Positions 1 through 23,888 are shown, numbered from the stretch's first letter. The stretch: DNA of 64,000 bases from Protoeuglena noctilucae (GCA_958009085.1 OY253679.1:248001-312000); one strand, 5' to 3'. The notes: a model not told the origin generated them from the sequence alone. A program made the numbers and translations.

Positions 1-3000
1 GTGGGGGCTTGGGTGGGGCCGGGGGTGCGTCCGGGCGGCGGGGGTGGTCGCGCGGGGCCGCGGGGCGTCTCGCGGGGTTAGACGAGGGTGATGAAAGCGA
101 GAGTGGCGAGAGCGACGGTGATGACGACGAGGGTGTCAGTTTGGACAGCGAGGATGAGGGGGGCAGTATCGGGAGCGAGGGGGAGGGGAGTGACGGAGAG
201 GGGGGGTGGGAGGAGGTGGGGGGTGCGCATGGGGAGGTGGGGGCAGGCGGGGTGGCGAGAGGTTGCGAGGAGCGCACTACGCCCGACCAGCCAGGCGTGA
301 CGGACCTCAAATGGTCCCTGGGGGAGCTGAAGGGGTACCTGAGCAAGCAGGGGTACGACTGGGAGCCCGTGTGGGAGGGCATACTGGATGTGGTGGTGCG
401 TACGGTGCAGGCTGCCGAGCCTCGCATGAACGCACTCAACCACGTGCACCTGCCGAGCCGGCTCAGTTGCTTCGAGTTGTTTGGGTTCGATATCATGCTC
501 GATTCTCGGCTCAAGCCGTGGCTCATCGAGGTCAACACCGGGCCCAGCCTGGCCGCCACCGCGCCCCTGGACCGCGCCATCAAGTTCCCGCTCCTGAGGT
601 GAGAGTCATATGCGATATGCATCCTGTTATCACAAATGCTGATACTCATATCAAGTTCCCGCTCCTGATGTGAGGGGAAGGGGTGATGGGCAATCTATTA
701 TCTACTACATTGCAATGGGCCATATTTCCAAATAATATCGAGCTCCCACTCCTCAAAATGTGCTGTGTTCGTGATCAACAAAACGTGTTCCGTTCCCATG
801 CAGGGACCTCCTCCACCTGGTGGGCGTGCCGGCGACCAACAAAGCACGATACGTGGCGGCACAGAAGGCCGAGCAAGAAGCACGTCTCACGGGCATCACC
901 CGAGCGGTCAGCGCGCGTGGTGCGGTCGGCCGGGGGGGTGACGCACCGGGCTCTAGCGCCGCGGGGCAGGGGTCGCGCCGCGAGCGGCCAGTGCTGGTGC
1001 AGGCGGCGTCGTCGCGCATCAACCGCCGCACGGTGGGGGAGGCCAGCGCCACGGACTTCCGGGGCGTGTTGCCGGAGGACCTGCCACTGTCCATCAGGTG
1101 AGGGATTAGTGATGTTAGTCACCGTCTGATGCTAGTCATGCTTGTGACTTCCGGGGGGTGCTACCGGAGGACCTGCCTTTGTCTATTAGGTGAGGGATGC
1201 GTAAGATTTGTGATGCTATGCTCATGAAGAGCAACCTGCTTCGTAGGACACTGACATGCCACTCCCGCAATCATTGCCAACCTCCGTCCCGCCCTATCGA
1301 CACCAGTGCTCAGCACACTCATACCACCCTTCACCCCACCCCCTCGCAGGGAGACGGAGGCCGAGCACGCCCGCCGCGGCGACTTCGTCCGCGCATTCCC
1401 CAGGGAGGACGACCCCGACCGCAACCATGACCTCTTCGACACGCCGCGGTACGAGAACGAGCTGGTCCGCGCGTGGCTGCACCACAAGCGGGGCCTGCTA
1501 ATGCGGTATGGCACGGTCGACCCACGGGAGCTGCCCAGGGGGCACCCGGACCGGGTGGCCACGAGGAGGGCGATAGGTGAGGTGCTGTGTACGAGTGGAG
1601 ATGAGAGAGGGGTGGCGATGTGCAGGGCGCTTGGTGAGGGTTGCGTGCACTGGGTTGAGATGTGCTAAGAGTGAGTTTACATGTGAGGGGCGCAGGGCGA
1701 CCAACTCATCACTGACTCATGTCACTACACCTAAGTGTTCTCATTTAATATACAACGTGCATGCTCTCCTCATGCCTGCAGGCTGCCCCCCCAGCCCAGG
1801 CGCCCCCGCCTCCCCGTCCCGAGCATCCAGCACCACACACGGCCCATCATCGACCGCCACGACCCTCGCGGCGCCCATGCCAGCGCCCGCCAGCGCCGAC
1901 GGCACCGCCCGGAGTCGCCAGGCATCAATCACAACGCCGAGCGTCGCACGTGACAGCGCAGACCACATCGGCATAACACCGCCGTCAGAACCCCAACCAC
2001 CCGCCACCGTTCCCACGTCCCACGCTACGCACTGGGACAACTCCAAATCGGCTCTCACAGAGTCGGGCCAGCAGCCAGTAGCTGCGATGGCGCACGCAGA
2101 GCGCAGTGTGGCAGCGAGCGCCCCCGACGCAGCATCTCCAACCAAAGCTTCACAAAGCGGGTCTCGACCCCGCGACCCACCCACCGCTGCCGCGTCGGCT
2201 GCCGCTCCCGGCGTGGCCCGGTCTTCCAGTCTCATCAGCAGCGCTGGGATGCGGGCATTGCGCGCGGGGCCACCGTCATCCCTGCCCATGAGCGGAGTGA
2301 TCGGGCCGCTTGACGCGGGTGTGGGGCCGTGGCAAGTCGACGAGCGTTTCGATGAGCAGGAGGGCGAGGGGGTGGGGGCGGAGGGGCGCGGGGCGGCCAC
2401 GCTGCGGCGTACGGGGTCGCGCCGTCGCGCGATGCCCGGCCGTGCTGGGTTCGATCCCGAGGGGCAATTACCCAGTGACCCGGTGGGGTTGGTTGGAAGC
2501 CAGTCGGGAGGGGCGGGGAGGGCGGGGCGTGGGGTGGTGACGGTGACGGCAAGACAGGCGCCGACGGAGGGGCCCGTGGGCGAAGGGGCGCGACACGGGT
2601 GAGGCAGGGCAGGATGCCTTTTTCTGCAAGGAATGGAATTGCTCACTGTCACTGTGGCTGTGCGTGTGACACGTAGCATCTCTCGTCTCTGTTGCAATGC
2701 TCGCTGTGATTGTCACTATCATTGCTGCTATTAATCCCTTACCTCTCTCTCTCCCTCACCTGCCCGCAGGTTCCTCTCCACGACCGCACCCAGCGCCGCT
2801 GCATCTCGCCGCCCTGTCCTAGCCCACACGTCGTTACGGTCCGGGGCAGTCATGACGCCCGTTGTCACGCTGGATCTATCCGTGTCTGGGCGCGAGGCTG
2901 CGGCACCCGATGCGACCATTAGAAACCAGGGAGGTGCCGTCACCGCATCCCGAGCCCCATCACGTGTGGGCACGACCCGGCCCAGCATCGCCGAAGCGAC

Positions 3001-3496
3001 CGACGCGGGTGCAGCGGCCAGGGCCGCCTCGCAGCCGTGGAGAGCAACAAACGAGGCGCTGGGCGGCGCCCGGGCGAGGGGGCCGGAGCCAGAGGCGACG
3101 CGACCTGGGGCAATGGTATCGCCGTCAGTGTTGTCAGAAACACCGTCGGTGCCATTCATGGCACCACCGACCACGATGCCAAACCTAGAGCCCTCCCCGC
3201 CGCGCCCCTCGCGCGCTCTGTCGCGGCCCGCGGACCCCGCTGCGCAGGCGGACGGCGCGTGGGGCCTTTCGCTGGGGGCAGATACTGGCGGGAGACTGAC
3301 GGAGGGCGTGTCTGTGCGGGGAAGGGCACACGGTGAAGCGGGTGCGGGTCGCGCGGCGGGCAGCTGGCGCGAAGGGGCGGCGCCGCTGGGTGTGTTGGGG
3401 GTCGGCGGTGGTGGGCAGGGGGGGGGCACGAGCGGGGGTGGGCGTGACGGGGCATGCACAGTTTGGGGCGGCCGAGCGCGTCTCGGGCGTGGCTGA
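1..3496 (+). CDS. Tubulin-tyrosine-ligase-like (TTLL family, polyglutamylase-type) protein, 5' end outside the window
   Basis: TTL C-terminal motifs KWSL, CFELFGFDIMLDSRLKPWLIEVNTGPSL and PLDRAIKFPLLR/DLLHLVGV. Exons approx 1-598, 804-1097, 1350-1576, 1782-2598, 2770-3496 join in frame via GT-AG introns. Long low-complexity C-terminus; the stop at 3496 is less certain. Confidence 0.85.
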
Positions 3497-4002
3497 GGGC
3501 CTCGGCTTTTCACCCTCAAAGGCCGCTGCGGTGGATGGGAACGCGTCGACGGGACGCGTGGTGTGGTCCCGGGCGGGTGCAGAGTCGATGAAGGGTGTGG
3601 TGGTGGGGGCGGGGGAGGTGGCGAGGGCGGGGCAGAGCCGGCGAGCGTTGGAGGCCCGGGCGCGCTCGCAATCGATCGTTTATGCATCTGCGATTGACAG
3701 TGACGGAGCGGGGATGCCGGGGGGTCTCAGCGTGGCCGCACTGACCGCCCTTGCCAGCTTGCGTTTACGATAGCCCTGGGTTGTCGCACACCGCACTCCC
3801 GCTGCCCACCCGGTCGCTGACAGGATAGGGTCTAGGCACATGTTTGTTCCTATCTTCTTCGGTTCAGTTAGCTTAGCTCAGCCAGCCGCCTAGCTCCATC
3901 CGTTCAATGCGTGACAAAGCATGTCTCTGACACACTCCGCACACACATAACCATGTAACATCATACCGTGTGGCCCGCTCACAAGCCCCTGCGCACCCTC
4001 TC

Positions 4003-5750
4003 TCACGCCGGCTCCGTCTTTGCCGCCATGATGGCGTCCCAATCCATATCTTTATCGCCCTCCTCTCCCGTTTGCGCACCCCCGCCCCCCGCTTGTGTAC
4101 CCGTCACACCCCCACCTGTTGCTTGCGTCCCCGCTGCCCCCGCCCCGTTCCCGAGCCCTGATGCCTCCCCAGAGTGCAAGAAACTGTGCGTGCGGATGGG
4201 CGGGCTCGGACCAGACACCTCCCCGACAACGGCAGCTCCCCCCAATCCACTCCCACTCCCTCCCGCCCCCCACGCCGCCCCTCGCACGCCCTCCCCGCCC
4301 CTCTCCATTATCCACCTTCGATTAAAGCCACCCTCATCTTCCGACGCAGTGCTTATGCGCGAAGGCGCCGCGCCACCGCTGCTGCGCTCCATAGGCGCTA
4401 GGCGAGAGTCCGGTGAGCGCGAACGCGAGAGACCTCTTGCCGAGGGCCGTTGCGACCCTGGGGAGGGCCTTCGCAACAGCGGCGAGCGGACGGGGACCCC
4501 GGGAGCGTCAGTCAGCGACGACCCTTCCTCTTCTGGGATGTCAGTGGCGTCACCGTCGCTCTCGGAACTTTGTTGCTTTGCTACCCGCCGCCTCGCACCG
4601 CCCCTGCCGCCAGCGCCATCACCGCCGCCGCCCTTGCCCCGGGTGGCTTTGGTGGTCCCCCTGGCACGCTTGGTGCGGCGTGGAGCTGGGCTGCCCTCCG
4701 CCGCACCTCCGCCCGGGGCCGTCTGCGTGAGGGCAGGCACTCAGCAATGATGAACATGACGCGACCTCACCCGCAGTCACACCTGTAGCCCTGCTCAGCA
4801 TCAATGCACCCACTGCCCCTCACCCACATCATCATCTCAGCACCCACCGCCCCCTTACCCGCAGCCTCTCCAGCAGTTCTGTGTTCTTCCTCCGCTTCTC
4901 CTCCAGCAGCGCCGCCACTGCCGGCAACAGATCGCTCTCCACCGCGTGCTGAGCCGCCACCGATGCCGCCAGCGCCCCGCTCAGCTCCAAGGCACGCGCC
5001 TCCGCCTGCGGGGGTGACAGCAACATAACAGTTACAACTGAGGCATTTGGCCAAGTGCATTGTTAATTGTCGACATACATTCTCATTCCATTCACGTGGA
5101 GATATGCAGAGATCAGTGTGCCCAGGCACACACTCCTGCTCGGCCCCTGAGCTCTCCCTAAACTCGCCCTGTAATGTGATGTGACCCCTCCCATCCCTCC
5201 TGAGCTGCACTCCGTTGTCCAGCGCGGCTAGCGGCTCACGAGACAGGTGCCCCGCATGTCACCTGCCGGAATAGGCGGTGGGTGTCGTCCAGAAGGTCGC
5301 AGAGGGCCGTTAGTGCTGCGAACGTGAATTGGGACACGAGCAGGTCGGCCCGGGAAACCTCCGCGCCATCCTTGGTCCGGACGGCAATGTGCGGGTCAGA
5401 ACCCGAAGTCGATACTCGCAGCGTTGCGGCGGGGGCCGGTGCTGCCGGGCCAGCGCCAGCGGGTGGGAATCCCAGAACCAAAAGTAGTGCGGGGTCCAGA
5501 GGACCGGGAGCGACGCGCCACCAGTCGCCGCAGGACGTGACGAGGTGCACGTCGATCGAAGATGAACTATTGGACTGCAAATCAAGCAAACGATGCTCCG
5601 TGTCGCAGAGCCGAGCTTCTATTCCGCTGCGGCGTCACATCGCAGCCACCTCACCGTTGTGGCGATGGCAACGGCGGGTCCACCTTCCTCAATAGTCAGT
5701 TTTTTGACCGCTGCGTTGGTGCCGTGGCTCAGGGTCCCCGCAGATGTCAT
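4003..5750 (-). CDS. XRCC4: XRCC4-like non-homologous end-joining protein (head domain, coiled coil, disordered tail)
   Basis: Spliced model from ATG 5750. DVHLVTSCGDWWR resembles the XRCC4 head (ITLTDGHSAW), and [27 protein letters not shown] resembles the ligase-IV-binding coil ([23 protein letters not shown]). Motifs recognised by eye only. Confidence 0.55.
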
Positions 5751-6046
5751 GGAGAGCCGTGGCAATGACCGCCACGCTCGCAGCTGTACACGCGCAACAC
5801 TCGAGACCGATGCGTGTTGAGCACGTGCTCCCGGGGATATGGACTGCTTGCGCAAGCGATTGCGCGCGACGTCATGGCATCGTCGAGGAAGAACGGCCCC
5901 GCTGGCATTGGACGCCAGTATCTGGGGAGAACGGGCTGGCCGAGAACTCTCACCCCGTCCGGACGTCGCCTGAAGAAACAGGCCAATCACCCGTGATCCC
6001 CTCTGTAGGAACTTTGTCCGAAGGAGGTCTGTGTCGCGTTTGCGTC

Positions 6047-8287
6047 ATGGTTGCGCCCACGCGGAGCCGCAAGAGCTCCGCTGCGGCAGGCGATGCCCAA
6101 GAGCTCAGCACCGATGGCAAGACCGCTGCGAAGACGGGTCGCGGGGGGGCGAGCGTCGCGGCAGTAGGTGCGGTGCGCCACATATGGCCTTCCATAATGT
6201 GGAACAGCTGATGGCGCCGCGCCAGGCAAGGGATGGCTTCCCATCACCCTCGCAGAATCACGGTGGCTTGCCGCGGACCCCTCCAAGCGCTTTGGCGAGC
6301 TCGTCTGGCTCGCCTACTCGCCGTGCTGGCAGGTATGTATACGGCATGCCCACCTCCGTTCCCTGGCGCCGCACCCGCCGCAGCAGTGACGTTGGGCCGC
6401 GCAATGTGCGCTTCATGAGCGTGTTCGTCGCATCACGCCCGCAGATATGGCTTCTGGCCGTCATCGTGCCCTTCAAGCTCTATGAAAAGATGGACTCCCT
6501 TTCGTACATGATCGTCGGCCTGGCGGTTTGCCTAGTGAGCCCGCGACTCTCGAGATGTTCGCGGAACTCTATCTACTTTCCTTAGGACTGACCGCGGGCT
6601 CAGCAGACCTTCGCCGCGCGCCTTGTTACCATGTTGCTCCTGACTCGCCCTTTCGGCTCTCCCCGCAGCCCTGCATCTTCATCCCCTGGGCCTTCCAGCC
6701 CAAGTCTGATTTGGAGAAGCCGTGGTTCATGCGCTGGTGGGTCAAGGCCAACGTCTGGATTTTCGTGTACAGCTTCATTGGCAACTACTTCTGGACCCAC
6801 TACTTCTACCAGGCAAGCGACCTGTGGAGCAGCAGTGGGAAGTGGGTGGTGTGACATCAACGCGCTTCCTCTGTCAACTCCTAATCTGCCCCACTTGTTA
6901 CCTTGTTGTGGTTGTCACCCCCAACCTCATTCGTTCCCACAGCTCCTTGGCGCCGACTACACCTTCCCCAGTCATTACCAGCGCCTGAACAACGTGCCCT
7001 TCTGCCTCTACCTCATGACCCACGGCTACTTCGCCTTCTATCATGTCGCCACCAACCTCCTCATGCGCAAGGTCGACACGACCATGGCCGCCCGCCGCGC
7101 CCCCGTTTTCTGGCGCCGCGTGGCCGTCGGCGTCGTGGTCTTCGTCATGGGTGAGCGGCTGTGCGGGCGATGGCACTTGTGCGGCAGTGCCATCCTCGTT
7201 TGGCCGTCTGGGGTGGCTGCTCGCTTACAAGGCTGCTCAATCGGGTTGTTTGATTGGTTGCATTGGCCCACACATATCGGCAACTCGAAAAAAGTGGCCT
7301 GCATGGCCCCTCTGATGCCCACTGTGCCCCCTTGCTTGCAGCGTACCTCCTGGCTTTCCTGGAGACCCTCACCATCAGCAGCTTCCCGTACTACACGCAC
7401 CAAGACAAGGCAATTTATGGGGCTGCAGCGATCCAGCGGTCGACATGATCGTTTACGCACCCATCTGCACGTTCCAACCTGCTTGTCAGCCCGCGTGACG
7501 CTAGCAGCTGCGTAAGCGTGCTGGTCACACGCCCACGCCACCCGCGCACCTCCATCCACGCCTCCCTGCGCTTCCAGGACCGCATGTACACGGTGGGCAG
7601 CCTCTTTTACGCCATCTACTTCTTCGTCAGCTTCCCGATGTTCTACCGCATCGACGAGGACACCAAGTGAGTCCACCCTCACTCTGAGCCCAGCGTGGGG
7701 CACGCCGCGCTGATGGGCCGCCCGCTGCGGCCCCGGCTTCCGTTCGTGCGAACTTACTTCTTGCTAAAAACGCTTGTATGTCGACGATTTCCGAGCCGGT
7801 GCCAGTTTGGCTGGAATCGCAGTGACTGCCTGCTGCGCTCCCTGACGTGCAGGGGCCGGAAGTGGACAGCTATGGACTGCCTCCTGGACGCCATGGCCGC
7901 TGGCATGATCTGCACCATCTTCCTCGACCTCTGGCGGCTGCTGGTGACTGCAAAGCCCCGCATGTGGCTCACTTTTATTGTGCCCCGTATTGGGTTACTT
8001 GCTACGCTCCCTGCGCCAGGATGCCCCCGCTTATGATTCACATCGGCACTCGCAATCAATCATTCACGGCCCCGTGCTTGCAGATCGGGGCCATCGTGGA
8101 CGACGGTGGGCGAGCGGCGGGCGCGGGCCTGGTTTGGGCGGCGGGTTCGCAGGGCAGCCTCGCACCCGGCAAGCCGGGGCTGGCTGCTAGCCCGGCTGTG
8201 GCTGGCAAGGCAGGGGTGGCTGGCAGTCCGCCTGTGGCTGGCAGGGCTGGGGTGGCTGGCAAGGCGGGAGTGGCTGGCAAGGCGTAG
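6047..8287 (+). CDS. CPI1: Cycloeucalenol cycloisomerase (cyclopropyl sterol isomerase)
   Basis: Eight exons give WLAADPSKRFGE, WWVKANVWIFVYSFIGNYFWTHYFYQLLGADYTFPS, FPYY..DRMYTVGSLFYAIYFFVSFPMFYRIDE and IFLDLWRL, matching plant CPI1. GC donors at 6813 and 7410. Confidence 0.92.
8181..8284 (+). repeat. 18-nt coding minisatellite in the CPI1 C-terminus (AGKAGV/AGSPPV units)
   Basis: About six copies of a GGCTGGCAAGGCAGGGGT-like unit just before the stop codon. Confidence 0.8.
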
Positions 8288-8673
8288 CGAGCCACGCGTC
8301 AATGTGGCGGGGGGCGTTCTGTGCAAAACGCCGCGTGGTGATTGTAGGTTCGCGTGCTTCATGATTACGTGTTCCAGTGGCATCAGCATAAGCACCGTTG
8401 ACACTGGCAGGGCGTGCTTTGGTTGAACAATCGAACACATCTGCAGCAGGGCTCTTGGCATTTCAGGGGCCCATGCAGTGGCATAGCATCGACAACGGCT
8501 GAGATCCATCAGATTTGCTATTTCCAGGACCCAGCAAGTAAGGAAGTAATCACGTTGCGTACTGTGCCTTGCCAACCCAATGGCAAAGCCGCATGCGCAG
8601 GTCAAAGGGGGCTGTGAAAGGCTGTGAACGCGCACCAAGTTATCAAATCATTATCATCTCGTCTCGCTTGACG

Positions 8674-11600
8674 TCATGCCGCGCCCTGCAGCCTCACTCG
8701 TATGGGGCACATGCGCGTGAGCATGTCCGCGTTGGGCACGCGGGAGCTGGTGAGGAGGATGAATCGGAACTCAGAGAGACGGTCGTCTGCGGGAAAGGTG
8801 ACCATAGCACGAATTGCAGCCTCAGCTTCATGCATGAGTAAGCAAGGCGATGGCACAAATCGCAGTCTCAGCATGCATGCACACACAGAGACACACACCC
8901 ACACACCCAGCATGCATGCACACCTGTGAAGTTGAAAGGCGCGTACTCCTCTCCGTCCTCGGGCCTCACGAGTTTGACATACGCCGCGTCTTTGAGCAGT
9001 TGCTTGGACAGAAGGGACTCCCAGAGACCCTCGTGGATGGCGCCGAAGAAGCGGGGCATGCTGCGTAGATGGTGGGGTGATTATAGCTCTTAAGTAAGAG
9101 CATCTGGTGAGGGTGGAGTGACAAGTGGGCACCAGAATTACTGAGAGAGGTTTACAGCCCAACGATGGGCTGCAAACGTGCCCCGACCAGCATCCCAGTA
9201 CCCCTCCTTCCCTCACCTGTCCCACATGTCGGCGTCCATCATGTCGACCACGAAGGGCTTGCCGTACCGCAGCGCCCCCAGCAGCGACCGCCTCAGCCGA
9301 TTGGGGTCCATGTCCGCGGGGGAGAGCGCCACGGCGAAATTCGAATCGGCGTATTTCAAAAACACCCCCGCGCGACCGCTCGCGTCCACCACGGCTGGCC
9401 ACCGGCCGTCGGCCTCGAGTCGCCTTCCAACGTCCTTGATCAGCACATCTCCCAAGTCGCGCAGATCCACGGACAGGCCCGGGGGGTCGTTGGGGTCGCT
9501 CGCGCCGCCGTTCGCAGTCGACCCGTGCTGCGCCTGTTGGCTGTCGCGCAGCGCGAGCCTGTAGGCCAGGACATGGGATGACGGTTCAATGGTGACGGTA
9601 TCGGTGACAAGGTGTGCATCTCTGCCACAGTGTTGTGCGCGGGCACGATGGGTCGTCACGCTGTCAATAAGTCCCTTTCACAATTGTGAGCGACAACCCA
9701 GTCACAGTCATGCCCACCGCCCTCCCCACTCACCTTGCTTCCTGCAGCACCTCTACAAATGCACCTCTACAAATGAAACACAACCTAAACCCCTCCCCCA
9801 CTCGCCTGGCTTCCTGCAGCGCCTCCGCCGCCTTCGCAGCCACCTCCCGCGCCCTCTCCACGGCCCCCTCGGCGTCGTGGATGGCCGCACGGCACGCCGC
9901 CAGCACACTCTGGGGACGCTGCTCCTCCACTGACGTGTCGTACTCGAAAATGCGCTTCTCCCGGTCACTGAGGGGGACAGGTGCGCGTGAAGGAGCAATG
10001 GGGGCCCATTGTGGAGATAACCTAGCCCATCTTGCTCATATCACATCACGTCACCCCAACCCCTCACCTGAGCGCCTTCTTCAGTGCCATCTGTGCCCCT
10101 TTACACTCCACCCCACAGCACCCCACTCTCCTCACCTCAGCGCCTTCTTCAGTGCCATCTGTGCCGCTTCGTGCCCCCTCTCCGCCTCCGCCACCGCCCC
10201 CTCTGCCGTGGCGACTCTCTGCGTCGCTGCCTCTGCGGCGAGGGCTGCCTTGGCCCTTGCACGCTCCGCCAACGAAGCGCGGATCGCATCCGTCTGCGAG
10301 AGGCCAAAGTAACAACGATGACAAGCGGATTGCACAAGTCTGCGAAAAGCATTGGTATGCATAATGCGGATGAGAATACACGGATAGCTATAGCAAGGAT
10401 AGCATTGGCATAGATGCTGTGAGAACTGCACCATGACTGCATCGCATATCACCCACCCATCCACATCAACCGCGCTCACCTTGCTCGTGTCCCACCCCCG
10501 AATAGCCGCCTGTATCTCGGCGCTCGTCGGGATGCCGTCCGGCAGCTCCCCAAACTCATTGGGCACGCGGGGGTCGGCCCCCGCCTCCAGCAGCGGCGCG
10601 ATGAGGTGGACATGGCCGGCGAAGGATGCGCGGAAGAGCGGGGTGCGCCGGAACTCGCCCTGGTTGTTGGGGTCCGCGCCGCGCGACAGCAGGAGCTTGA
10701 CGGTGGGCAGGTCGCCCCCCGCGCACGCCTCGCTCAGCAGCGTGTTGCCGTGGCCGTCTGCCGTGTCGACGGGGTCAGGGAAGTACGGCTGCGGGAGAGA
10801 GAGGATGGGTTGGGGTAGTGAGAAGATGGGATCGGGGAGGTAGGGCTGCGGGAGACTGGGGGTCATCGGTCAGGTAATGTTAAGTGTGGACTGGTCCTTG
10901 CAATCCATGGACGGGTGTCCCGAGTGGGAGGGTGTGGGACGGCTGTGTGCGGGTGCGGTGGAAGGATGTTGGCTTACTCCCACCCTTCGACACTCATCCC
11001 CGCCCCCACTACTCCCCACTAGGTCCCCCCTTCGACTCTCACCTCCGACTCGGCCATGAGCTTCACCAGCGCCTCGCTGTCCCCCTCAAACGCCGCCTCC
11101 AGCAGCGCCTTAGTCAGACGTCGCGCCTCACGCTTGCGCTGCTCCTCCTCCTCCGTCGCCTGCGAAGGGATGATCGAAACGGACAGTGAAACAAACCGAC
11201 GCTGAGTCATGACAGTAGCTGTAGCTGAAACACGTCAGCGCCCATCGCCCTCTTGTCGACCCCACGAGCCCCGCAGCGATTGCTGTCCCCACCACCGCTG
11301 CACCAACCACCGCGTCCCGTCGCACGGACCTTGGCCCTCGCCGCAGCCTTGCGTCTCTCCTCGCGCACTTGCGCAGCTATCGCCGCCTGATGGAGTGCCT
11401 CCATCTCGCCCTCCATGCGCCGCCCTAGCTCCCGCTGCGCACGCGCGCGGGCAGCCGAGCGCCGCGCCAGCCAGCCGCGCACCGCAGACTGGACTGTTAC
11501 CGGGCGCTCCACGTCGGCCTCGGTCATCGTGCGCGGCTCCGCGGGGCCCTTGTCACTCTTCCCGGCCTTGCTCCCGGCCTTGCTCCCGGACACGGCCTTC

Positions 11601-11731
11601 TTGGCCCCGGCAGCGGACTTACCGGCTTTCGCGGGAGCCTTGGTCGTCGAGGAGGCCGGCTTTTTGGCAGGTGCGGCGCCCGGAGAGGCGACCGGGGCCT
11701 TCTTCGCCACGGGCTTGGTCGTGAGCGGCAT
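8674..11731 (-). CDS. IQANK1: IQ motif and ankyrin repeat protein (IQANK1-like)
   Basis: IQ motif VQSAVRGWLARR; ankyrin repeats DGHGNTLLSEACAGG..GADPN and RTPLFRASFAGH..GADP; C-terminal DVLIKDVGRRL..GRWPAVVD..FLKY..LRRSLLGALRYGKPFVVDM. About nine exons. Confidence 0.8.
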
Positions 11732-12537: not shown

Positions 12538-15500
12538 ATGGGTAGCCGCGAGCGGCATCCGAGCGCACACGCGGTTTCAGGGCGTGGCCGCGAAGCGGAC
12601 GCGGTTTCTCCTCACGGCTCGCGGCCAACTCGCACATGGATCGCGTGTTCGTTCATTCTCTCATCGCTCGCGCGGGGAAAACGACTCCGCGCCCTCCGCG
12701 GCCCACCACGCGCAGGGACGAGGGGCCTCCGCATCAAAATCGATACGTCCGGCAGGCATTCGGACCGTCCCGACGTCGACGACAGCCACCAGCAAGATCT
12801 CCTGTCCCGGTCGCCACTCGCTGCGGACCTCAGGCGGTCCCTGAAGTCCGGCGTCGACCACCGCCCCTCGTGGGCCGCGGGAGCCGCGCTGAGCCCCGCT
12901 GCGAGCCTCGCGCCGGCCGCCGCGGCTCCTGCTTCGACGGAGGTGGGTCTCGAGACCCGCACGGGCCCATTCCAGGAGCGAATCGAGGCGGAGCATCGAT
13001 TCCGCACCGTCTGCCGCGCCCTCCTGGCGCCCGGGCTGCTCCCCGGGCCCGCGCGGCCCGACGAACCGGACGCGTCGTCGCTGGCGGGCCGCGTGGCGGT
13101 CGCGCGATGGGCCGCGCGGGCCATGGGGATGCCCGCTGTGGTACTCGAACGTGCTGTGGCCGAGGCCCTGGACGCCAACCGCCAACTCTTGGCCACCTAC
13201 GAGCGGTGAGAGAGCCATAGCACGAATTGTTTCTTGATTGTGACAGCTGCGGCGAGCAGGGAGCGAGTCCGCGTCGCCCGTCGCAACCCTTGTGATGGAC
13301 AGACCACAACACACCGCCACCTCTGCCGTCGCCTCCCGCAGTCAACACCGGGCCCTTCGGTCCGCTCGTGGTGGGGACGGCACCCCGTCCGCAGAGCACT
13401 TCTTATCTCCCGAAGCCTTTGCCGCTTGGCGTGAGAGCGAGCTGGAGGAACTGGAGAGAATCGCGGGCGCCCTGCGCGCGATGCCGGAGTTCCAAGCGAG
13501 CGCCAGGGTGTGCCTGGTGGGGGCGAGGGACCTGCCAGACCCACCCAAGGGAGGGCGCAAGGGGCTGGCCGCTCTCATGTCGTGCTGTATGGCGCCGGGT
13601 GAGCAGGGCAGGGTGTGCGGATGTGGGGAGTGGGTGTTGGGGGTGGTAACACATTGCATGTGTTGCTGGGCACACAGCACAGAGCGAGGGGGCAAACGAG
13701 GCGCAAGCGGTTGCGATGCGGCCGCTCCCATATATGCCCATTCAATTTCAAACTGCAAACTCATTCTCACCTCATCCCACCCCCAGCGTCGGAAGACGAG
13801 GGCCTGAACGCCTTCGCCGTCGTCACCCTGGGCCCCTCCCCCGGCGCCGTTTATGGCGACGCCCGCCACGTGCGGCACGCCAGCGCGGCCAGCGGCGTTG
13901 GCGGCGGCGGCGGTGCGGACCGGGTCATCGGGGGCGCGCGAGTTGTTATGGGAAACACGGGCAGCGCCGGTAGTAGCGCGGGTGCGGTGTGCGCGTCGGT
14001 GGCCAACGCCGTCTTTGCCACCGAGCCCCGTGTCAACTCCCGCTCCCCCGCTTGGCACGCGGCTGCCCCCGCGGCGCTTATTACGACCCGCGAGAGCGAC
14101 CGTCTGCGCATTGAGATCCGGCACGACCCCTCGGCCAGTCGTGCGTTGAGTGACGAGGCGGTACGGGCGTTGGGGGCGGGGGAGGGCACTCCCAGGTATC
14201 AGGCGGACGGGCGCGGGGGCGGCGTGGAGGTGCGGGGGGGGCATCTGCGGGTGGAGGGGGGGCCGGACTACGCGATGATGACGGGGATCGGGTGAGCATG
14301 AGATGGGGATGCGTATTGTGCTGTGGTGTTGGATGTTATGGGGTGGGGTTGTGCGATGATGACGGGGATCGGGTGAAGAGTGCGGGTGGGTGGGGTGGTG
14401 CTATGAGAGCGGGCATTGGGCAGGTAGCGTGAGCATGCAACGAGCCACCATGCGATGCAATTGCGATGATAGACGTTATTGATTGCCACTCTTCATGGCG
14501 CAGGGAGGAGCTGTCACGTGGTGGTGGTGGATCCGCGATGTGCGCCATGTCTGCATTGGAGGCATCGCCCACCGACGCAGCGGCCCCGCTGCTGGGATGG
14601 GTGGAGGTGCCGGTGGATGCGGGGGGGGTGGCGGTGACTGCCAAGAGAGGTGAGAGAAATGGGCGGTGAATAGACGTGGGGCGGCTGGGGCTGGGCAGAG
14701 AGTGGTGAGAGGGGTGGGGTGCATGTGAGAGGTGCTGGTGGATGCGGGGGGGGTGGCGGTGATGGCGAAGAGAGGTCTGATGGATGGGGTGATGTGAGAA
14801 GGGTGGCTGTAGCTGTGTGCGCAAGGAGATGCGCGGGGTTTGGCCACTCACCCCCACTGACTTCCACCTACCTCACCCCACACCGCTCATCACCCACCCC
14901 ACCCGCACTAAGCCCCACATCACCCACACCACCCCACATATCAGCCACACCACCCCACATATCACCCACCACCACCCCTCACCCGCCCCCAGTCCTCTCC
15001 AAGATGGCCGTGGACCCCCGCATCCGCGACCGCCTGGCCAAGCGAAACGTCAGACCCGACCCACCCAACGACGCCAACTGGCCGGCCCTCGATCTATTTA
15101 TAGAGTGTGTATGCGAGAGGGGACAGGTGGCGACAGGTGCGGGCGGGCAGCCCGGGGCAGTGGCGGTGGGTCCGACGTCTTCGTACCGAGAGCGGGTGCG
15201 GGCGGTGGGGGCGGCGATGGGGGCGGTGTGGCGCGCGTGGGACGATGCGCGGCGTCTGGGTGCGGGTGCGGGCGTGGCGGTGGGGCCGATGGATGCGCAT
15301 GCGTTTGGGGGCGTGGGGGGTGCGATGGCGGCGGCGGTGGAGGCGGCGTATCAATGTGCGGGGCACGTGCCCACGGGGACGGCGCTGTTCGTGGCAGTCA
15401 AGGCGAGAGGGGTGGATGGGGTGGTAGGTGGATGCATGGGGGTGGTGCATGCTTGCGGGGATTGGTGCATTGCATATCTCATCGTCACTCTCACTTGCAT

Positions 15501-18500
15501 TTGCACTGCCACTGTTACCAACACCACCCTCACCCTCACCCACACACTCACCCCCCTTGCCCCCCCAGCTGTGTGCCTACCTTCGTGTGCGTGGCGAGGC
15601 GCTCTGTCTGTGCCTGGCGCGTCACTTGCTGGAGCGATGGGCCGAGGAGGCGGGGTACCTGGTGTCGCTGCGGTGCGCGGTGGTGCCCGTGGCGGCGGCG
15701 ATGAGGGGCGGGACGATGAACAGGGTGGAGGTGAGGGGTGGAGTGGGGTGGGAGTGGATGTGAGGGGGGGAACGATGAACAGGGTGGAGGTGAGGAGATG
15801 GGTGGGATAGGGTGGAGTGGGGTGGAGATGTGGGGTGGGGTGAGGGGGGGGTGGAGTGGGTGAGGGACGCGGCAGCATGGGGTGGTACGGCGAGCACCAC
15901 CGTCAATTGCCTGCCAAGTATCGACTGCCTGCCCACTCTCGCCTGCTCTCCCCATTCGCAGCACCAGATGTCGCTGGATCTGATGTCCGACCTGGCCAGC
16001 CATATCCATAGTTACATCTAATTACTAGATACTAATTACATCTCCCATTGCTCTCCATCACTCGCAGCACCAAATGGCATTGGACCTGATGTCGGACCTG
16101 GCCAGCCGGGTGGTGCAGGTGCTGGACGACCTGTACCTGGCACTGCCGGAGAAACAGGTGAATGGGGATAGTTTCATTTACGCATGAATAGTAATGGTAA
16201 TAGTAATACATGTGCATGGGTGGTGCAGGTGCACGGTGCCACTACGTGCTTACTACTCTCAACTCCCTCGATATCCCATCTCTCCCCCCCCAGATGTCTG
16301 CCTGCCTGAAGGCCCTGGTGAGCCTGGCGGGCATGGCGCTGCTGCAGGACCCTTACCCAGTTGGATTCGACGAAGCATTGAAGGTGCACGTCAAGCGCAG
16401 CGCGAGGAACCAGGCGAGTGTTATTGAATATCGAAAAATGATATCATTATAGTTATAATAATGTTAATAGTTATTATAAATACTGATTTTTATTGAACAT
16501 TATTATTGTTCTTATCGCTGCGTCTTATCGTTCACTCCCAGGTGATCCGCGTGCTGAGTCAGCAGGAGCAGTCCTTAGAGGAGGCGGTGGGGGCGGTGAC
16601 GCGGGCGGTGCGGACGGCAAAGGAGGCGATCGTGGGGGATCTGGTGGTTGCACACGCGCTGCCGGGGAGCAGGGGGGTGGCACAGGTGAGGAGATGGTTA
16701 CTAGTACCTTTACTATGACTATTACTATCACTATCACTATCGCTGTCATTATCACTATTACTACCACTATCACTATTACCACCTCCCCACCATCTCAGGC
16801 CGCTTCTGCCACGCGCTATTCGGTGATTGCGGCCGCGTTGGGCCAGATATTCAGCGGGATGGAAACGGTGACATACACGGCGGCAGTGCAGTTATTGGAA
16901 GATGCTATGGCGGAGTGGCACGAGGAGTTGAGGAGGCAGGGGATGGTGCGGAGGAAGGTGGAGGGGGAGGGGGAGAGAGGTGAGGGGTGGGGTGGGGGTG
17001 GGGGTGAGGTTGGTGGTGAGGGGTGCATAAAGGGCAGCATGTGCACCAGCGCTACCTTGCACATATGCTACCCACCACCACCATAACTAGACACAAACAC
17101 CACCCACCATTCACCGCACACCCCGCCTTACTCGCAGACCCCCTCTCCCCGTCCCCCCCCATCGCCATCACGCCAGACAACCCCTTTCACCCCGCCAACC
17201 CCACCGCCACCACCCCCGCCCCATCCCACGCCCGCCGCCCCTCCGGGACGCCCCGCGACAACGACAGCGACGTTTACCCTACCCCCGCCAGTAATCCGCC
17301 AGAATCGGGGCGCCAGGGGCGGACATCATCGGCGGGGGCGAGTGTGAAAGCGACCCCACCCCGTGCCCCACCCGCACCCTCACCCCATGCACCCCGCGCA
17401 TCCTTTCTCACTCCCGACAGCGCCGGCGCTCGCAGCAACATCAGCGGCGATCGCAGCGCCAACGCCACCCCCGCCCCACGCACCGCTGGTCGCAACACTG
17501 GTCGCAATGCCGATCGCACCGCCAGTGCCACCCCCGCCACCCCCGCTGTCCCGTTGGCAGCTGCCGAGGCATCGCAAAAGTCGTTGAGCGGTGGCCGGTC
17601 AGTGACTAAGATCGTGGATGGGGAGATTGAGTTGGTGGATTTGGAGGCGATGTTGGGTTCGTCCATCCGGGCGTGGGTGGGGGCGGTGGCGGAGAAACTG
17701 GTGCAGTGGGTAAGTGGGTGGATGAATGGGGTTGATAAGTGGATGTGAATTATTAAGTTGGATGAGTGCAGTGGGTGAGAAGGGGTGGATGAGTGGGTGA
17801 ATCAATGGGCGAATGAATGGGGTAGGTGGGTGGATGTGAGTGATTGGAATGGGTGTGGTTGGGTGTGCTGGTAGATGGGTGATGTGGTGATGTGGTGCGC
17901 GAGCAACTACTGCGGCTTGACAACTTCTACTGCTTCAGTTTTACTCACATATGAGTAATTGTCACTACCACTTCACGTAGGTGGGCAACAACATCGCTGC
18001 TGACTCGTTTGAGCCGGCTGGGTCCGACCGTGCCCAGCGCCACAGCATGAGCGTCATCGACCTGTTCCAGGCGAGATGGGGCGATGGATGGTCATTTGTT
18101 ATGTTATAGTTATAATTGTTGATAGCAGCAGTCACAGCATGAGCGTCATCGACCTGTTCTAGGCGAGAAGAGGCGATGCGGTGGTTATTCGTAATAATAC
18201 AGAGATATCTTTTGTTGCGTTGCTCCTCTTTGTTGTCCATAATAGTGCATTTTCATGAGAATAACATAAGTTCTATAAGTTCTTATTATCATCATCAATT
18301 ATCAATTATTTACAACAATTACCATCCCCCACCTCCCCCATCTCCCCTATCCCCGCAGCTGCTGGGCGCCGTGACCGAGCAAGTGATGCGCCGTGCAGCC
18401 CTGGGCCCCCCCAGCCGCCACGCCAGCGTCGCATTGCAGCTGGAGCGCGGCATGGGCGCGGCCTTCCAGGCGTACGCGGTCGCAATCGAGAGGCTCTGTT

Positions 18501-21500
18501 TGGACGCTCTCGATCCCAAAAGGGCGCCGGCCGTGATTGAGAGGAGCGTGGGGGGAGCGGGGGGCGGGGAGGGTGGCAATGCGGCGTGGACCACAAAGCG
18601 GCTGGCGACCATGGTGAGTGCTTGTGTATAGTGGTGATATGTGTAGTTATAAATATTGGTAATAGTTGGTGATAATTACGCAAGGGGCACGGCTGGCGAC
18701 CACGGCGAGCCGACGGGATGGCGAACTGTACAGCTAACTGTGGATACTGGTAATTGTTGATATTGATAATGTCACATTGTAACACCCCTCCCTTGTTGCG
18801 CAGCTCAACAACCTCCGCGCCATCGAGGTGCGTCAGTTCCAGGTCAAGTGCGTTTTGCGAGACCTGGCCACCAAGGGACGGGTCACGGCGTGGGGCGGGG
18901 AGCAAATGGACGAAAGCAGTGGTGACGATGGTAACGGTGGTAACGATGGACATGGTCATGATAATGGTGATAATGATGACGATATCGACGACGATTTGAG
19001 TCTGGAAGGGGGCTCGTCGTCGGGTGGTGGAGAGGGGGAGGGTGGCAGTGCGGGGAAGGGTGGTGGCGAGGGGGCGGGGGCGGTGGGGCGGGCATCCGAC
19101 GCCGCGGGGGAGATGCTCAGGCGAGGGCGGGCGTTATTGTTGTTATTATCAGTATTATAATATGCAATATTATTGGTATTGATGATGATGTCGGTGTGAA
19201 ATTGGTAATATTATTGTATTATTATAAAGTAACCGTTCCCCGCCCGTCTCCTCCGCACAGATCCACCATCCTTCGCGTGCTGGGGGAGCTTGGCTGGCGC
19301 GTGCGTGAGCTGGTGGGCTTCCACGTCCGGCACGCATTGACGGCGGTGCGGAGGCAGGGGGCGGGGGCGATGGAGGGGGAGATGGCGGGGGAGGGGGCCG
19401 AGGGAGAGCCGTTCCGGTGAGCGGGTTTGAACATGGATATTGATATCATGGCTGCCATGGGCGTGGGGTTGAATTGCGACGTTTAGCGGTTGTCATTATA
19501 CTGACTGCGATTGGCATGTTATCGACGATTGCTTTTATTGCTAGTACGAATATTCAGTTGATATCCATGTATAATAACAACATACATAGTGACTACTACC
19601 ATCGACACACTAACCGCCTTGGCCACCCCTCCTTCCCTGCCCCGCAGCAAGCAGGGCCTGATCGCCAGAGTGAAGGCCAAATACCAGCGATATTTGGCTA
19701 AGAAAGCCGCCAAGAGAGCACCAAAATGGGCGGCGCAGGCTGGGGGATCTGCCAGCGCCCAAACGCCAGCGATGGGGGTGGGGTTGGGGGGGGGCGGTGC
19801 GGGCAGTCATGCAAATGAGGCGATGGCTGGGGCTGGGGCGGCGGCCAGACGCAGGGGATCGCGGGGATTGGGCCGGGATCGATCCGGATCGACGCTTGAT
19901 GTCAACGCCGTCATTTGCGATGAGACCAACCCATTTGCTGTGACGGGGGGTGGTGGTTGGGGTGGGGATGGGGAGGGCAGCGATGTGTCGGAGATGGATG
20001 CGGGGCTGGACCCTTCGCTCATGGCGGTGAGTGGAATATGGTAATATATACCATTATATGGTGTAAACATTGGTAAATATACAATAATGCTGTATTGGTG
20101 AGTGGTTGTGTCGGAGATGGATGCCGGGCTGGACCCTTCGCTCGTGGTGGTGAGTTAGAGATGGTTATTGATATAATTGGTACAGTTATTGATTAAAATA
20201 TAATCATTGCCAACGAGATGGTTATTGATATAATTGGTACAGTTATTGATTAAAATATAATCATTGCCAACGATGATCGATGCTTAGCACTCGGTGCTTT
20301 CAACTACTAGCGAATGCCTCATGCCTTTTAAACGATTGCAGGGCGACGCTGCACCAATGGATGACGGTGCCGGCAGCCGCGAGCTGTCGGGTCCCGGCGT
20401 GATGGCGTCGCTGCCCAGTGACGTGGCTTCTGCATATCTCGGGGGAGGGGGGGAGGCGGCCGTGGTGGCCCTCAAAGCGTACCTGGACAGCGAGGTGATG
20501 GACGATGACGGTGTTTGTGTTGTTTTATTTTACAATATAAGTATTTTGTAGATAATATGCTACAACACCACAACACCAACTAACCACCACTCTCATCACC
20601 CCCCATCCCCACAGATGGAGTGCATGTATTTGAGCATGGTCCCCGCCGTGTTCAATCTCGCGATGTCCGAGTCGTGGTCGGCGTGCCTGCGACTGTTCGA
20701 GGATCTATTGCTTCATAAGGACACGGCCATTGCGGCGCTGGGGACACCACAGGAGCTGGACATGGCGCGGGTGCTGTTCGTGGAGGTGAGATGGGAGTGG
20801 AACGGGAGGAGTTGTAACAGTCGGTCGTGACATCATATGGTCACACCCTATAAGTGTAACACTTACCACCATTTGCATGGCGCGGGTGACGAGCGTGGCA
20901 TAGCCCATGGACCGTCATTCCGTCATTCGCATCCCCATCTGCCACTGGGACAAGGCGCCGTGGACGAATTTGGAATATTCTCTTTCCCACTCCGCTGGAC
21001 GGAAAATATGCCAACTCTTCCACGGCGCTGCGTCACAGTGGCAGATGCTCATGCGAATGACGGCAGATGCTGATGCGAAACGGCAGATGCTCATGTGAGT
21101 GACGGCTCCAAGGTGGGACGATGCAGATTGCACGACGATGCGGTAACATGGTTATTACAGTTTCATTTATCATGATATCACAATGAAAAATATAATGCGG
21201 GTATCTAGTACAGTATTATGACATACATCAATATACAAATACTTATTCATATATTGTATCATTATCAATTTTAGTGACACCCAATTAACACCAACATCCT
21301 TTAATATCTACCCCCGCCCCTCCACAGATCCTGGAGCACTTCCACGGCGACAGCCTGGGTTTGCCCCGGCGCCAGTTGGAGCGGACGTCGCGACGGGTGG
21401 CGCGGCTGTTCGACCTTCATTATTCCTCAACAAAAGTGCTGCGGAAGGTGTTCTTCGCCTTAAAGGCGCAAGTGATCGAGAGGCGCACGCACCTGCTGCC

Positions 21501-23888
21501 TGCTGCAGAGGCGGGGGCGGAGGGGGCGGGGGCGGCGGGGATCGAGCGGCCGTCTGTGAGGTGAGGAGATGAGGGGTGGTGGTGGTGGTGGTAGTAGTAA
21601 GACTTATCGACCCGTCCATCGCTCCCCAGCTCCACTATACTTATTTATGATTAGTAATTAAGAGATTTTTAACTACTCTCCTCACTCTCCTTGCCCCTCC
21701 CCACCACCCCCCCAGCTTTGCGTCCCTCTCCCACGCCGGCCCCAGCGGCCAGGACATCGCGCGTGCAGTGACAGCACTGGGCCCGGAGGGGGTGTCGATG
21801 TTAGACGTGCTGGAGGTGCTGAGGCAGCGGGCGGGGAGGGACGAGCAGGCCGCGGAGGTGGGTAGTTGATTAATTGAGCGAGTGGTGGGGAGTGGTGGAG
21901 TGAGTGAGTGGTTGGTTGGTTGGTTGAGTGAGTGAGTGAGTGAGGCAGTGAGTGGGGTGCGTGGGGGTGGGAGGGAGTGCGCATGCGTGGGAAGCGAGTG
22001 CGCAGGTGCGGGTAGTAGTGAGGGTGCATGGATAGACTAGCAAGTAAAGATGGCGCCACGCATCGCCAGGTGCCGCCAGGTGCCGCAATACTAATTATAG
22101 TCATTATAGTCATAAATTATACATATATAATCATATTAGTGTCATATATAGTCATATCCCCCATCTCTCCCCACCACCCTCCCCCAGGTCGTCTCATCAG
22201 GTCGTCAGGTCGTCTCATATACTACTAGATATACTATCATAATTATGAACCTCATTCTCACTCTCTCCACCACCCCCCAGGTCGTTTCGGCCGAGGGCGA
22301 CGCCGCCCGCCGCGACCTCCTCTCCTCGCTGTTCGGATTCGACCCCGGGGCCACCTCCCTCGTCGCGTCGCACCCGTGCGCATTGGACGACGTGCCGGGG
22401 ACGCTCTTCGTCACCACCAGATTCCTCGCATTCGCGCCCCACGAGAACCTCAGGCACTCGTGGGACCCACGGGGGGCGGGTGAGTAAGCATGCGAGTAAA
22501 GTTTTTAGATATTATTGTTTTTGAACGTGATGGAGGGTGATGAAGTAAGGGAGATGATGATTAAATTGTTTCCAAGTAAATTGCTATATATCATCTCTGA
22601 CCACCCCTCCGTTTCCATCACTTGATATCGTGCTATGGACCCCTATCCTCTCCAATCCAAACCGTCATCGCAGTCGACGGCGCTGCGGCTGCCCCCGACC
22701 GCCGCGTGGTGGTCCCCGTGGCGAAGATCGCAGCCATGGATGCGGAGACGATGGGGCACGAGGAGGCGGTGGTCATGGTGAGCAGACCATAGCTATTGAT
22801 GTATGTTGAGTATATGATGTGATTAATTGTTACTAACTGAGAGTGGTTGTGGACGCGGAGACGATGGGGCACGAGGAAGCCGTGGTCATGGTGACGGAAA
22901 GAGACGCGTGCTGTGTTATCAATTGGTCCCTACCATTGTCCTGCAATCATCAAAACCCCAACAATCCAATGATCATAAGCTTTCATTTATTATAAATCCC
23001 TTCTCTCCTTGCCCCTTTCAGATCGGCCCCGACCACGAGCGCCACGTCTTCTCGCGTTTCGCGGCACGCCAGAGGGACGTGCTGCTGTCCACGCTGTGGA
23101 CGGCCGTTTCTGGCACCGGCACCGCGCTCGAGGCCTATCTCGCCAAGCAGATGCGCGGGGCGGCCGAGGGCGTGGGCGGGGTGCTGCCGGCGGGGGAGGC
23201 CGTGCTCCGGAGCTACAAGTGCGCCAAGGCGAGTAGCTAGTAACGGAGGCGTCGATGGCTGGAGTGGTCAAATGGTCCATGGATGGATCCATGGGTGACG
23301 TTACCACTGTTTCTGTGTAAGTAATCATGATCGTTATTATTGTTGCTGTAATTACTGATTATTAATTTGTTGTTATCATTAGTATTCGTTTTATCAATAT
23401 GCTCTTATCCGAACCCCCTCTCTTGTTCTCAGATCACGAAGGACCGCCTCCGCCTGAAGCACGGCACGCTCTACGTGTGTTTCAAGCACCTGGTCTTCGA
23501 CTCCACCGAGTGCACCCGCAAGACCATCCCATACGTGGACGTACTCAAGGTTAGGCGGATGGTTGGAGTGTGATAATGTATGATAGTAATATGGTGATAA
23601 CATAGTTGTAATTGTGACGGCATCGATGGAGTATCGGGGCGATCATCATAGCACAGCGAGGGAAGGGTGTTATCATATCAAATCGACCGTCTATTCGATT
23701 GCTTGCTTATTGTCCCACAATCCTCGCAGGTCACGTGCGAGCACAGCGACTTACACGGACCGGTCGTGACGTTCAAAGTGCCCGTCTACGACAAGAAGCG
23801 GCTCAAGCTGGCCGGGTTCGAGTCCCGCCAGGACGCAGTGGATCTCGTCAGCGTCATCTCGGGACTCTGCGACGTCCACCGGCGGTAA
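12538..23888 (+). CDS. Munc13/UNC-13-like tethering protein: C2 domain, MUN (MHD1+MHD2) domain, two C-terminal GRAM-like domains
   Basis: C2-like RVCLVGARDLP; MHD1-like WVGNNIAADSFEP..RHSMSVIDLFQLL; MHD2-like LKAYLDSEMECMY..EILEHFHGDSLGLP..LFDLHYSSTKVL; GRAM-like LVASHPCALDDVPGTLFVTTRFLAF and EAVLRSYKCAK..HGTLYVCFKHLVFDS. More than 20 exons; start codon uncertain, stop TAA at 23888. Confidence 0.7.
20158..20273. repeat. Perfect 57-bp AT-rich tandem duplication in an intron
   Basis: GAGATGGTTATTGATATAATTGGTACAGTTATTGATTAAAATATAATCATTGCCAAC at 20158 and 20215. Confidence 0.95.
20920..21063. repeat. Intronic imperfect inverted repeat (hairpin, ~62-bp arms, ~18-nt loop)
   Basis: 20920-20982 aligns to the reverse complement of 21001-21063 with roughly 11 mismatches and one indel (hand alignment). 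Confidence 0.9.
21899..21945. repeat. Compound tetranucleotide microsatellite (TGAG)n(TGGT)n(TGAG)n, intronic
   Basis: Directly visible in the sequence. Confidence 0.85.

Follow-up and report, generated by a model that had tools for sequence, protein, structure and literature searches.

Copies of exon ends within introns of a Protoeuglena noctilucae locus as probable relics of local duplications across splice donors

In Rogers' model of intron creation, a tandem genomic duplication carries a splice signal with it and the spliceosome removes the redundant copy (PMC3443670), and Hellsten et al. 2011 put a Rogers-type tandem duplication to an in vivo test and showed it in cells (PMC3265369). The first of these sources also describes intron gain in Daphnia at repaired staggered double-strand breaks, where short direct repeats flank the insert (PMC3443670). 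Here we describe a stretch of 64,000 nucleotides (nt) from Protoeuglena noctilucae (GCA_958009085.1 OY253679.1:248001-312000; hereafter the window, with coordinates counted from its start) in which introns contain, 57-125 nt from the working splice junction, a second copy of the adjoining exon end together with its splice site, which we call an echo. The echoes are a real and unusual feature for which the core explanation is ordinary, with several points left open: with a probability of roughly 0.58, they are relics of local, mostly tandem duplications of ~50-125 nt across splice junctions, nearly always the donor. The pattern appears to be a side effect of local DNA duplication and not a new splicing device.

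As in Rogers' model, a short tandem duplication within a gene is spliced away, the coding sequence stays intact and the removed piece is derived from an exon. The model differs in that an exonic AGGT is duplicated and the new intron is wholly exon-derived, whereas in the window an existing intron is extended across its donor, and each echo precedes 100-300 nt more of intron and not, as in Rogers-type intron creation, the next exon. The density of the copies (12 of 30 introns), their layering and their bias towards donors are likewise not described for Rogers-type cases in the parts of these sources consulted. The Daphnia insertions, as far as that account extends, share with the echoes direct repeats that bear a splice-junction motif and flank unrelated-looking, spliced-out sequence; there, however, the repeats are called 'short', with no length stated, and surround a whole new intron, whereas here they are 20-53 nt long, both fall inside an older intron, 57-125 nt from each other, and the spacer itself sometimes belongs to the repeat unit.

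Introners form families of similar elements and leave short target duplications of fixed length at both intron ends. They and transposon-derived introns resemble the echoes in that an insertion-like event leaves a duplicated target including the splice site, but the spacers here are unique within the window and the duplications are 20-53 nt long, variable, and both near the 5′ end of the intron. We found no support for introner or transposon insertion, since within the 64-kilobase (kb) window the spacers belong to no repeated family and there is no fixed short target duplication at two ends, nor for a mobile-element family, since a BLAST search with the spacers on both strands of the window returned only the spacers themselves and exon ends. 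Minisatellites are tandem arrays of variable copy number with interleaved unit variants, and the window too has G-rich units of 50-125 nt, interleaved variants (58093-58363) and many short arrays in the surrounding introns; the difference is that here the first unit starts in a coding exon with a working donor, so that selection holds the array in place at that end. Internal gene duplications have reportedly been treated by Gao and Lynch in 2009. Of the processes described so far, the closest is the tandem duplication of a stretch that carries a splice signal, of which the echoes would be a variant that lengthens old introns, and a literature search in a limited collection turned up no report of introns with exon-end copies at such density.

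Four genes (A-D) were modelled by hand, and their joined exons were verified to be open in a single frame; the models contain 34 introns, 30 in genes A-C, which span 1-23.3 kb of the window, and 4 in gene D. Echoes were detected by a repeat search, a diagonal scan of the whole window and alignments anchored at splice sites. In the anchored alignments, identity runs from 9-46 exon nt across the GT or GC into 4-16 intron nt, and the two copies stand in direct orientation and follow the direction of the gene on both strands. A donor probe consisting of the last 36 exon nt and 6 intron nt was scored against its own intron and against every other intron. Against introns other than their own, probes scored 13.5 at most, with 10.5 as the 99th percentile, whereas 12 of the 13 donor echoes listed in the original prediction, which had been made from the sequence alone, scored 15-35, above all non-cognate scores; these 12 lie in 12 of the 30 introns of genes A-C. 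For acceptor probes the non-cognate maximum was 14.5. That prediction had claimed copies of exon edges in introns, and the 16 pairs on its list were all recovered where they had been placed: 13 are solid by the probe test, one is borderline (10845) and two are weak (17710 and 22188; Table 1). The score of 11.5 at 17710 falls between the 99th percentile and the maximum of the null, and that intron holds further internal repeats at a spacing of 91; an extra, decayed donor copy at ~20877 (intron 20786-21327) is marginal with a score of 13. In 13 of the 30 introns of genes A-C, and in the other three of gene D, both probe tests gave scores at or below the 95th percentile of the null. Short-range repeats occur at ~0.5 per kb in window 1-23 kb, and the same repeat type occurs at 0-0.1 per kb in 26 of 28 eukaryote-like metagenome loci of at least 6 kb (the remaining two, L032 and L036, have 0.24 and 0.58). 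These background loci came from a related-locus search with the tubulin-tyrosine-ligase (TTL) exon, which gave 80 loci, none above 61% protein identity, and they serve as a background for repeat density only. The echoes are thus a genuine feature, above chance.

Contigs from other read sets carry the same pairs. A 36,112-nt contig of the public run X3 (2025), at a depth of 131, agrees letter for letter with window 3401-16947 and 17020-20187, and a second X3 contig covers 20244-23400; from metagenome run X6 (2016), a different sample, a 10,994-nt contig covers 4252-15245 with 1 difference. Every echo pair in 9.7-22.9 kb, the stretch that this comparison covered (gene A's three pairs and the 58 kb array lie outside it), stands on an unbroken contig from these read sets at even depth. 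At most one of the runs X3 and X6 could be related to the source of the window. The question raised by the original prediction, whether the copies are real DNA or haplotype joins, is thereby answered for these pairs in favour of real DNA. The single X6 difference, T to G at 14754, falls inside the echo of pair 14650/14775. Contigs of the read sets are interrupted at the 57-nt unit of 20158-20273, where contigs of 58-59 nt have depths of 184 and 370 against 131-205 alongside; because of this raised depth, the copy number of the unit may exceed two.

Duplication in place is seen in two perfect repeats and in the three layers at 14260-14420. In gene D, the array at 58093-58363 contains a two-unit block of 106 nt repeated exactly (Tandem Repeats Finder, TRF, period 106, 2.6 copies, 95% matches), with unit types interleaved and units related over their whole length, and in gene C a perfect 57-nt tandem duplication follows an echo. 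These perfect re-duplications of 106 and 57 nt show duplication in place. Together with the perfect 14-nt duplication in gene B, the 57-nt one adjoins an echo, and TRF lists 28 rows for window 1-23.5 kb and 13 for the remaining 40.5 kb, five of these 13 in gene D introns; the region is generally prone to tandem duplication. In pair 18071 the entire 92-nt unit is recognisably duplicated, the junction part at 29/30 identity and the spacer at 67% over 63 columns (z 7.2).

Such a duplication would leave an echo in the following way. If the duplicated stretch straddled a donor, the pre-mRNA would hold two copies of 'exon end + GT', and splicing would use the upstream copy, which is contiguous with the exon; the spacer and the second copy would leave with the intron, so that the protein would be unchanged and the intron one unit longer. 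Repeated rounds would give layers and arrays. The duplication itself probably arose by slippage, unequal exchange or template switching. Afterwards the relic would decay, while the exon copy, under purifying selection, would change almost only silently, often by exchange of G and C at third codon positions. With a preference for the upstream site, an added donor would do no harm whereas an added acceptor would, and in the 5′ parts of the introns, rich in G and T and prone to repeats, the spacer would turn over faster than the relic.

Intron lengths agree with this scheme. In genes A-C, introns with an echo measure 250 nt (n=12) and those without 154 nt (n=13; Mann-Whitney P 1.6e-4), and the excess of 96 nt is about one unit, the mean spacing being 87 nt. 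With cases of two and of five layers, these lengths bear out the earlier proposal that introns here grow in layers. The spacer is homologous to the sequence after the echo in 4/13 donor pairs (z>3), and as a group the spacers score 11.5 against their cognate sequence and 7.4 against non-cognate ones, a mean that 0/20,000 permutations reach, in a test that shared local composition inflates and for which the within-intron control had too few windows. No spacer homology is detectable in several young pairs (14292, z -0.2; 22778, z 0.3; 10135, z 0.8) or in pair 9805.

Exon and relic differ mostly at silent positions. In the true frame, 16 pairs with 140 codons show 24 synonymous and 14 replacement differences, and nucleotide differences at codon positions 1/2/3 number 10/7/26; the tally of about 24 to 12 given in the original prediction is reproduced, as is its stated sensitivity to where alignments end (24:21, 23:13 or 15:7 with other alignment-end penalties, the frame effect persisting throughout). 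In the shifted-frame controls the tally is 6:26 (Fisher P 2e-4 against the true frame) and 5:29 (P 3e-5). As a null, that prediction had taken neutral decay at roughly 1:3. Its rejection of pure relic decay stands, since simulated decay of the intronic copy alone gave at least 24 synonymous differences in 0/1500 runs, but the null leaves out the silently changing exon copy. When the exon copy changes silently only and the relic neutrally, both at the same rate, the model predicts a synonymous share of 0.37-0.44, and the observed share is 0.63; in this two-lineage null, the probability of at least 24 synonymous differences is 0.003-0.04, and of at least 26 third-position differences 0.02-0.14, varying with the mutation spectrum. 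With a silent rate 2-3 times faster in exons the excess is gone (P 0.14-0.17). The excess beyond the two-lineage expectation is marginal, and the enrichment of exon-relic differences at silent sites can be ascribed to an exon that changes only silently while the relic decays. That both copies were once coding is accordingly allowed but unneeded, since silent exon change and relic decay give most of the excess. Ten of the 11 differences between G and C fall at position 3, an exchange by which the G+C content at third positions (GC3) stays high. Of the seven differences at position 2, five pair an exonic G or C with an A or T in the echo, and most are an exonic C opposite an echo T, a pattern expected for relic decay; one echo has gained a stop. 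Over all positions, 17 differences pair exonic G/C with echo A/T and 12 are the reverse; GC3 in the echoes is 0.88. By a BLOSUM test, the replacements are not more conservative than single-base changes made at random (P 0.36).

RNA from gene B bears on which of the two sites is used. Record 27 of the X9 RNA contigs (2072 nt) aligns to 8417-8786, 9217-9556 and 11329-11752, leaving 137 and 747 record letters between the aligned pieces that are not directly seen. The 137 letters equal exon 7 (9060-8924), and the 747 (9556-11329) equal exons 5, 4, 3 and 2 (162+158+309+117 = 746) with +2 and -1 boundary letters, which can be placed on either flank since the real donor (9805) has GC. Use of an echo would lengthen the transcript by 72, 68 or 57 letters. 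From these lengths, in one gene and one assembled transcript that leaves room for minor or decay-prone isoforms, we infer that the real sites are spliced at 3/3 echo-bearing junctions, and for gene B the suggestion that echoes are still used in splicing finds no support. Two echo donors of gene B outscore their real donors, yet the real sites fit the RNA lengths. Over gene C, the RNA contigs are unspliced pieces (14990-15360 and 22259-22523). Hypothetical use of the echo donors would bring a stop or frameshift in 11/13 cases. Echo donors score 9.3 on average and real donors 11.2, and 4/13 echo donors are clearly decayed. Folding of the RNA from junction to echo gave no consistent structure in 12 segments (17710 omitted; z -2.5 to +2.4).

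Several observations weigh against relics of simple duplication and decay. The RNA evidence spans gene B only. Nine of the 13 echo donors score within the range of real donors and four exceed their real partner, so that position or context must decide the choice of site. Clear donor copies number 13 and acceptor copies 1-2 in the 34 modelled introns (binomial P 0.007), a bias that the mutation process itself does not explain, and neither is it explained why donor echoes outnumber intron-internal repeats (~4 by the diagonal scan). The clustering is unexplained as well: echoes occur in 12/30 introns of genes A-C and in 1/31 elsewhere (Fisher P 5e-4), where 27 of the 31 are predicted only, by a weight matrix whose training set had two gene D donors one base off. 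The codon-level silent excess, as given above, is still nominally significant at equal rates. Finally, relics differ from their exons at just 17/280 first and second codon positions (6%), whereas the spacers are 54-79% identical or unalignable, and pair 1098 combines an all-synonymous relic with a spacer that is only 58% identical. We prefer to explain these better-kept relics by slippage, through which a spacer rich in G and T and prone to repeats would turn over faster; gene conversion by the exon copy, selection acting on the relic or a diverged template could account for them too.

The last of these leads to the alternative that survives best, itself quite unlikely in our judgement: that the upstream unit, an exon end with a foreign intron start, was copied from a diverged allele, a hybrid haplotype or a paralogue by break repair or unequal exchange, so that the two units differed from birth. 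Such an origin would fit the residual silent excess at equal rates (P 0.003-0.04), the near-symmetric differences (17 versus 12) with an echo GC3 of 0.88, and exon parts that are ~90% identical beside spacers at 54-79% or unalignable, as for alleles with fast-evolving introns; the clustering in 23 kb could then mark one tract with a diverged partner. The original prediction had put forward gene conversion or break repair from a divergent allele, but no such allele is seen: the X3 and X6 contigs have 0-1 differences over 11-20 kb, and in a search of a protein collection the product of gene C exon 14 is one sequence on 17 contigs with no relative, although these present-day read sets speak only to present haplotypes and leave past ones possible. 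A foreign source is not needed for the perfect copies (14272/14353, the 106-nt block and the 57-nt pair), ~16 separate illegitimate joins would be required in 23 kb, the replacement differences are not conservative (P 0.36), and a diverged template predicts equal numbers of donors and acceptors.

Still less likely, we think, is that the relics are actively kept, either by short-tract gene conversion from the exon, a concerted evolution like that of minisatellites, or by selection as decoy or auxiliary U1 sites that assist or regulate the real donor. The relics are indeed better conserved than the adjoining spacers, 9/13 echo donors lie in the range of real donors with four above their partner, and the interleaved unit types at 58 kb resemble those of exchanging arrays. 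Selection or conversion of this kind sits poorly with echo donors that are weaker on average (9.3 vs 11.2) and clearly decayed in 4/13 cases, with the echo that has a stop, with the visible C-to-T decay at position 2 and with the absence of RNA structure in the 12 segments from junction to echo. The 13 introns of genes A-C and three of gene D that are free of echoes by both probe tests must be spliced independently of any echo.

Lower again in probability stands the insertion of filler DNA at a staggered break over the donor, in which an overhang of 20-55 nt filled on both sides would give a long target duplication around a foreign spacer. The abrupt end of similarity 4-16 nt into the intron, and the spacers unrelated to post-echo sequence in the young pairs 14292, 22778 and 10135, are what it would leave. 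Spacer homology in 4/13 pairs and in the group as a whole speaks against it, as do the same G-rich tail on the units at 14292, the relatedness throughout of the units in the 58 kb array, and spacers that match nothing else in the window. An assembly artefact, namely the tandem joining of two haplotypes or of overlapping ends of contigs, is barely credible: the copies do differ chiefly at silent sites, as alleles would, but haplotype mis-assembly was rejected on finding the tandem arrangement unchanged in the separately assembled X3 and X6 contigs, which come from two read sets of two studies and span both copies and the spacer at even depth, and the echoes follow gene orientation on both strands.

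If duplication across junctions and subsequent decay account for the echoes, they offer a record that is poorly documented elsewhere, that of single events of intron lengthening, since each event here is marked by an exon-end copy; why certain genes or regions accumulate long, repeat-rich introns is poorly documented too. The relics allow duplication events to be counted per intron, silent and neutral rates to be estimated by comparing selected with unselected copies, and the choice between two near-identical donors to be followed as a natural experiment. Should the pattern be genome-wide, the introns of a marine protist would grow to a quantitatively important extent by junction duplication, and a rule that the upstream donor wins would become directly testable. 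A further-reaching version, which seems to us unlikely, holds that donor-anchored duplication is a regular form of intron growth at the 5′ end, with relics kept by conversion or by selection as decoy or helper donors, or recording exchange with a diverged haplotype confined to the region. If relics were kept, or diverged exchange recorded, in this way, they would act as dated fossils from which earlier exon sequence and earlier partners in recombination could be read.

Table 1. Echoes, related duplications and gene models in the window (sites are given as working/echo; for gene A, those of the third echo refer to the donor G)
Feature	Position	Strand	Sites	Spacing (nt)	Probe score	Remarks
Donor echo, gene A	579-603 vs 650-674	+	599/670	71	22.5	
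Donor echo, gene A	1054-1106 vs 1146-1198	+	1098/1190	92	24.5	7 nucleotide differences in 6 codons, every one synonymous
Donor echo, gene A	1553..1639	+	1577/1634	57	15	More decayed; spacer and post-echo sequence 72% alike, z 4.4
Donor echo, gene B	9724..9825	-	9805 (GC)/9733 (GT)	72	18.5	Adjoined by perfect 14-nt tandem duplication (9747-9775)
Donor echo, gene B	10062..10169	-	10135/10067	68	35	38/40 nt identical
Acceptor echo, gene B	10771..10855	-	10788/10845	57	14.5	Borderline; exon-like start 10845 upstream of the real one
Donor echo, gene C	14272-14295 vs 14353-14376 (region 14260..14420)	+	14292/14373		24	Perfect, 24/24
Third layer, gene C	14388-14420	+				More decayed copy, new beyond the earlier list
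Donor echo, gene C	14604-14651 vs 14729-14776	+	14650/14775	125	30.5	Echo donor decayed to GTCTGA
Donor echo, gene C	15702..15795	+	15731/15790	59	30	In G-rich repetitive 5′ part of intron
Acceptor echo, gene C	15953-16001 vs real 16059-16107	+	16068/15962 (exon starts)	106	27	Clear
Weak donor echo, gene C	17701..17845	+	17710/17775		11.5	9 exon nt + GT
Donor echo, gene C	18041..18178	+	18071 (GC)/18163	92	33.5	
Donor echo, gene C	18599..18709	+	18614/18705	91	15	Echo donor decayed to GCGAGC
Donor echo, gene C	19984-20032 vs 20107-20155	+	20027/20150	123	34.5	
Perfect 57-nt tandem duplication	20158-20273	+				Same intron as echo 20150, directly downstream of it
Weak acceptor echo, gene C	22170..22290	+	22281/22188 (exon starts)		11.5	Shared: only 8 exon nt + C-rich tract
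Donor echo, gene C	22737..22894	+	22778/22891	113	35	42/45 nt identical; all 3 differences synonymous
Array, gene D	58093-58363	+			25	~5 units of 52-54 nt (exon end, GTGA, spacer); beyond the range of the earlier list
Gene A	junctions 598/804, 1097/1350, 1576/1782	+				Tubulin-tyrosine-ligase family, Pfam TTL, E 4e-22
Gene B	11731 to ~8690	-				8 exons; ankyrin repeats, IQ/ankyrin product
Gene C	~13.6-23.2 kb	+				21 exons; family search without match
Gene D	56.4-58.85 kb	+				WD40-like by Atlas features

The window is eukaryotic DNA with a GC content of 0.53-0.73 per 2-kb step. Between 16000 and 24000, GC drops to 0.53-0.57, against 0.59-0.73 in the rest; the cause is the AT-rich introns in the 3′ half of gene C, where exon GC3 is still ~0.88-0.89. 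Outside genes A-D, a codon-usage scan gave scattered short segments only and GC3-filtered open reading frames were few; an Rfam search of the window gave 0 matches.

Introns in the window have GTGAG or GCGAG donors and acceptors with a C-rich tract followed by CAG. GC in place of GT, always as GCGAG, occurs at 6/35 hand-read donors (9805, 15403, 16414, 18071, 19121 and 23229), five of them among the 34 modelled introns and one (23229) following exon 21 of gene C; pair 9805 combines a working GC donor with a GT echo. The introns of genes A-D are strand-asymmetric (e.g. 14292-14503, 15731-16067 and 57711-57907), with a G/T-rich 5′ part that contains degenerate repeats resembling GGTG or GTGAG and a C/A-rich 3′ part that ends in CAG.

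Three further repeats lie apart from the echoes. An 18-nt tandem array (8168-8284; 6.5 copies, 71% matches) stands just past the end of the gene B transcript contig. A perfect 15-nt copy of exon-internal sequence, without a splice site, links 16108-16122, ~36-50 nt upstream of donor 16158, to 16218-16232 in the next intron at a spacing of 110, and this copy may be the remainder of an older unit. In the unrelated metagenome locus L036, two tandem copies at 5187-5369 (spacing 128) resemble the 3′ half of a tRNA gene.

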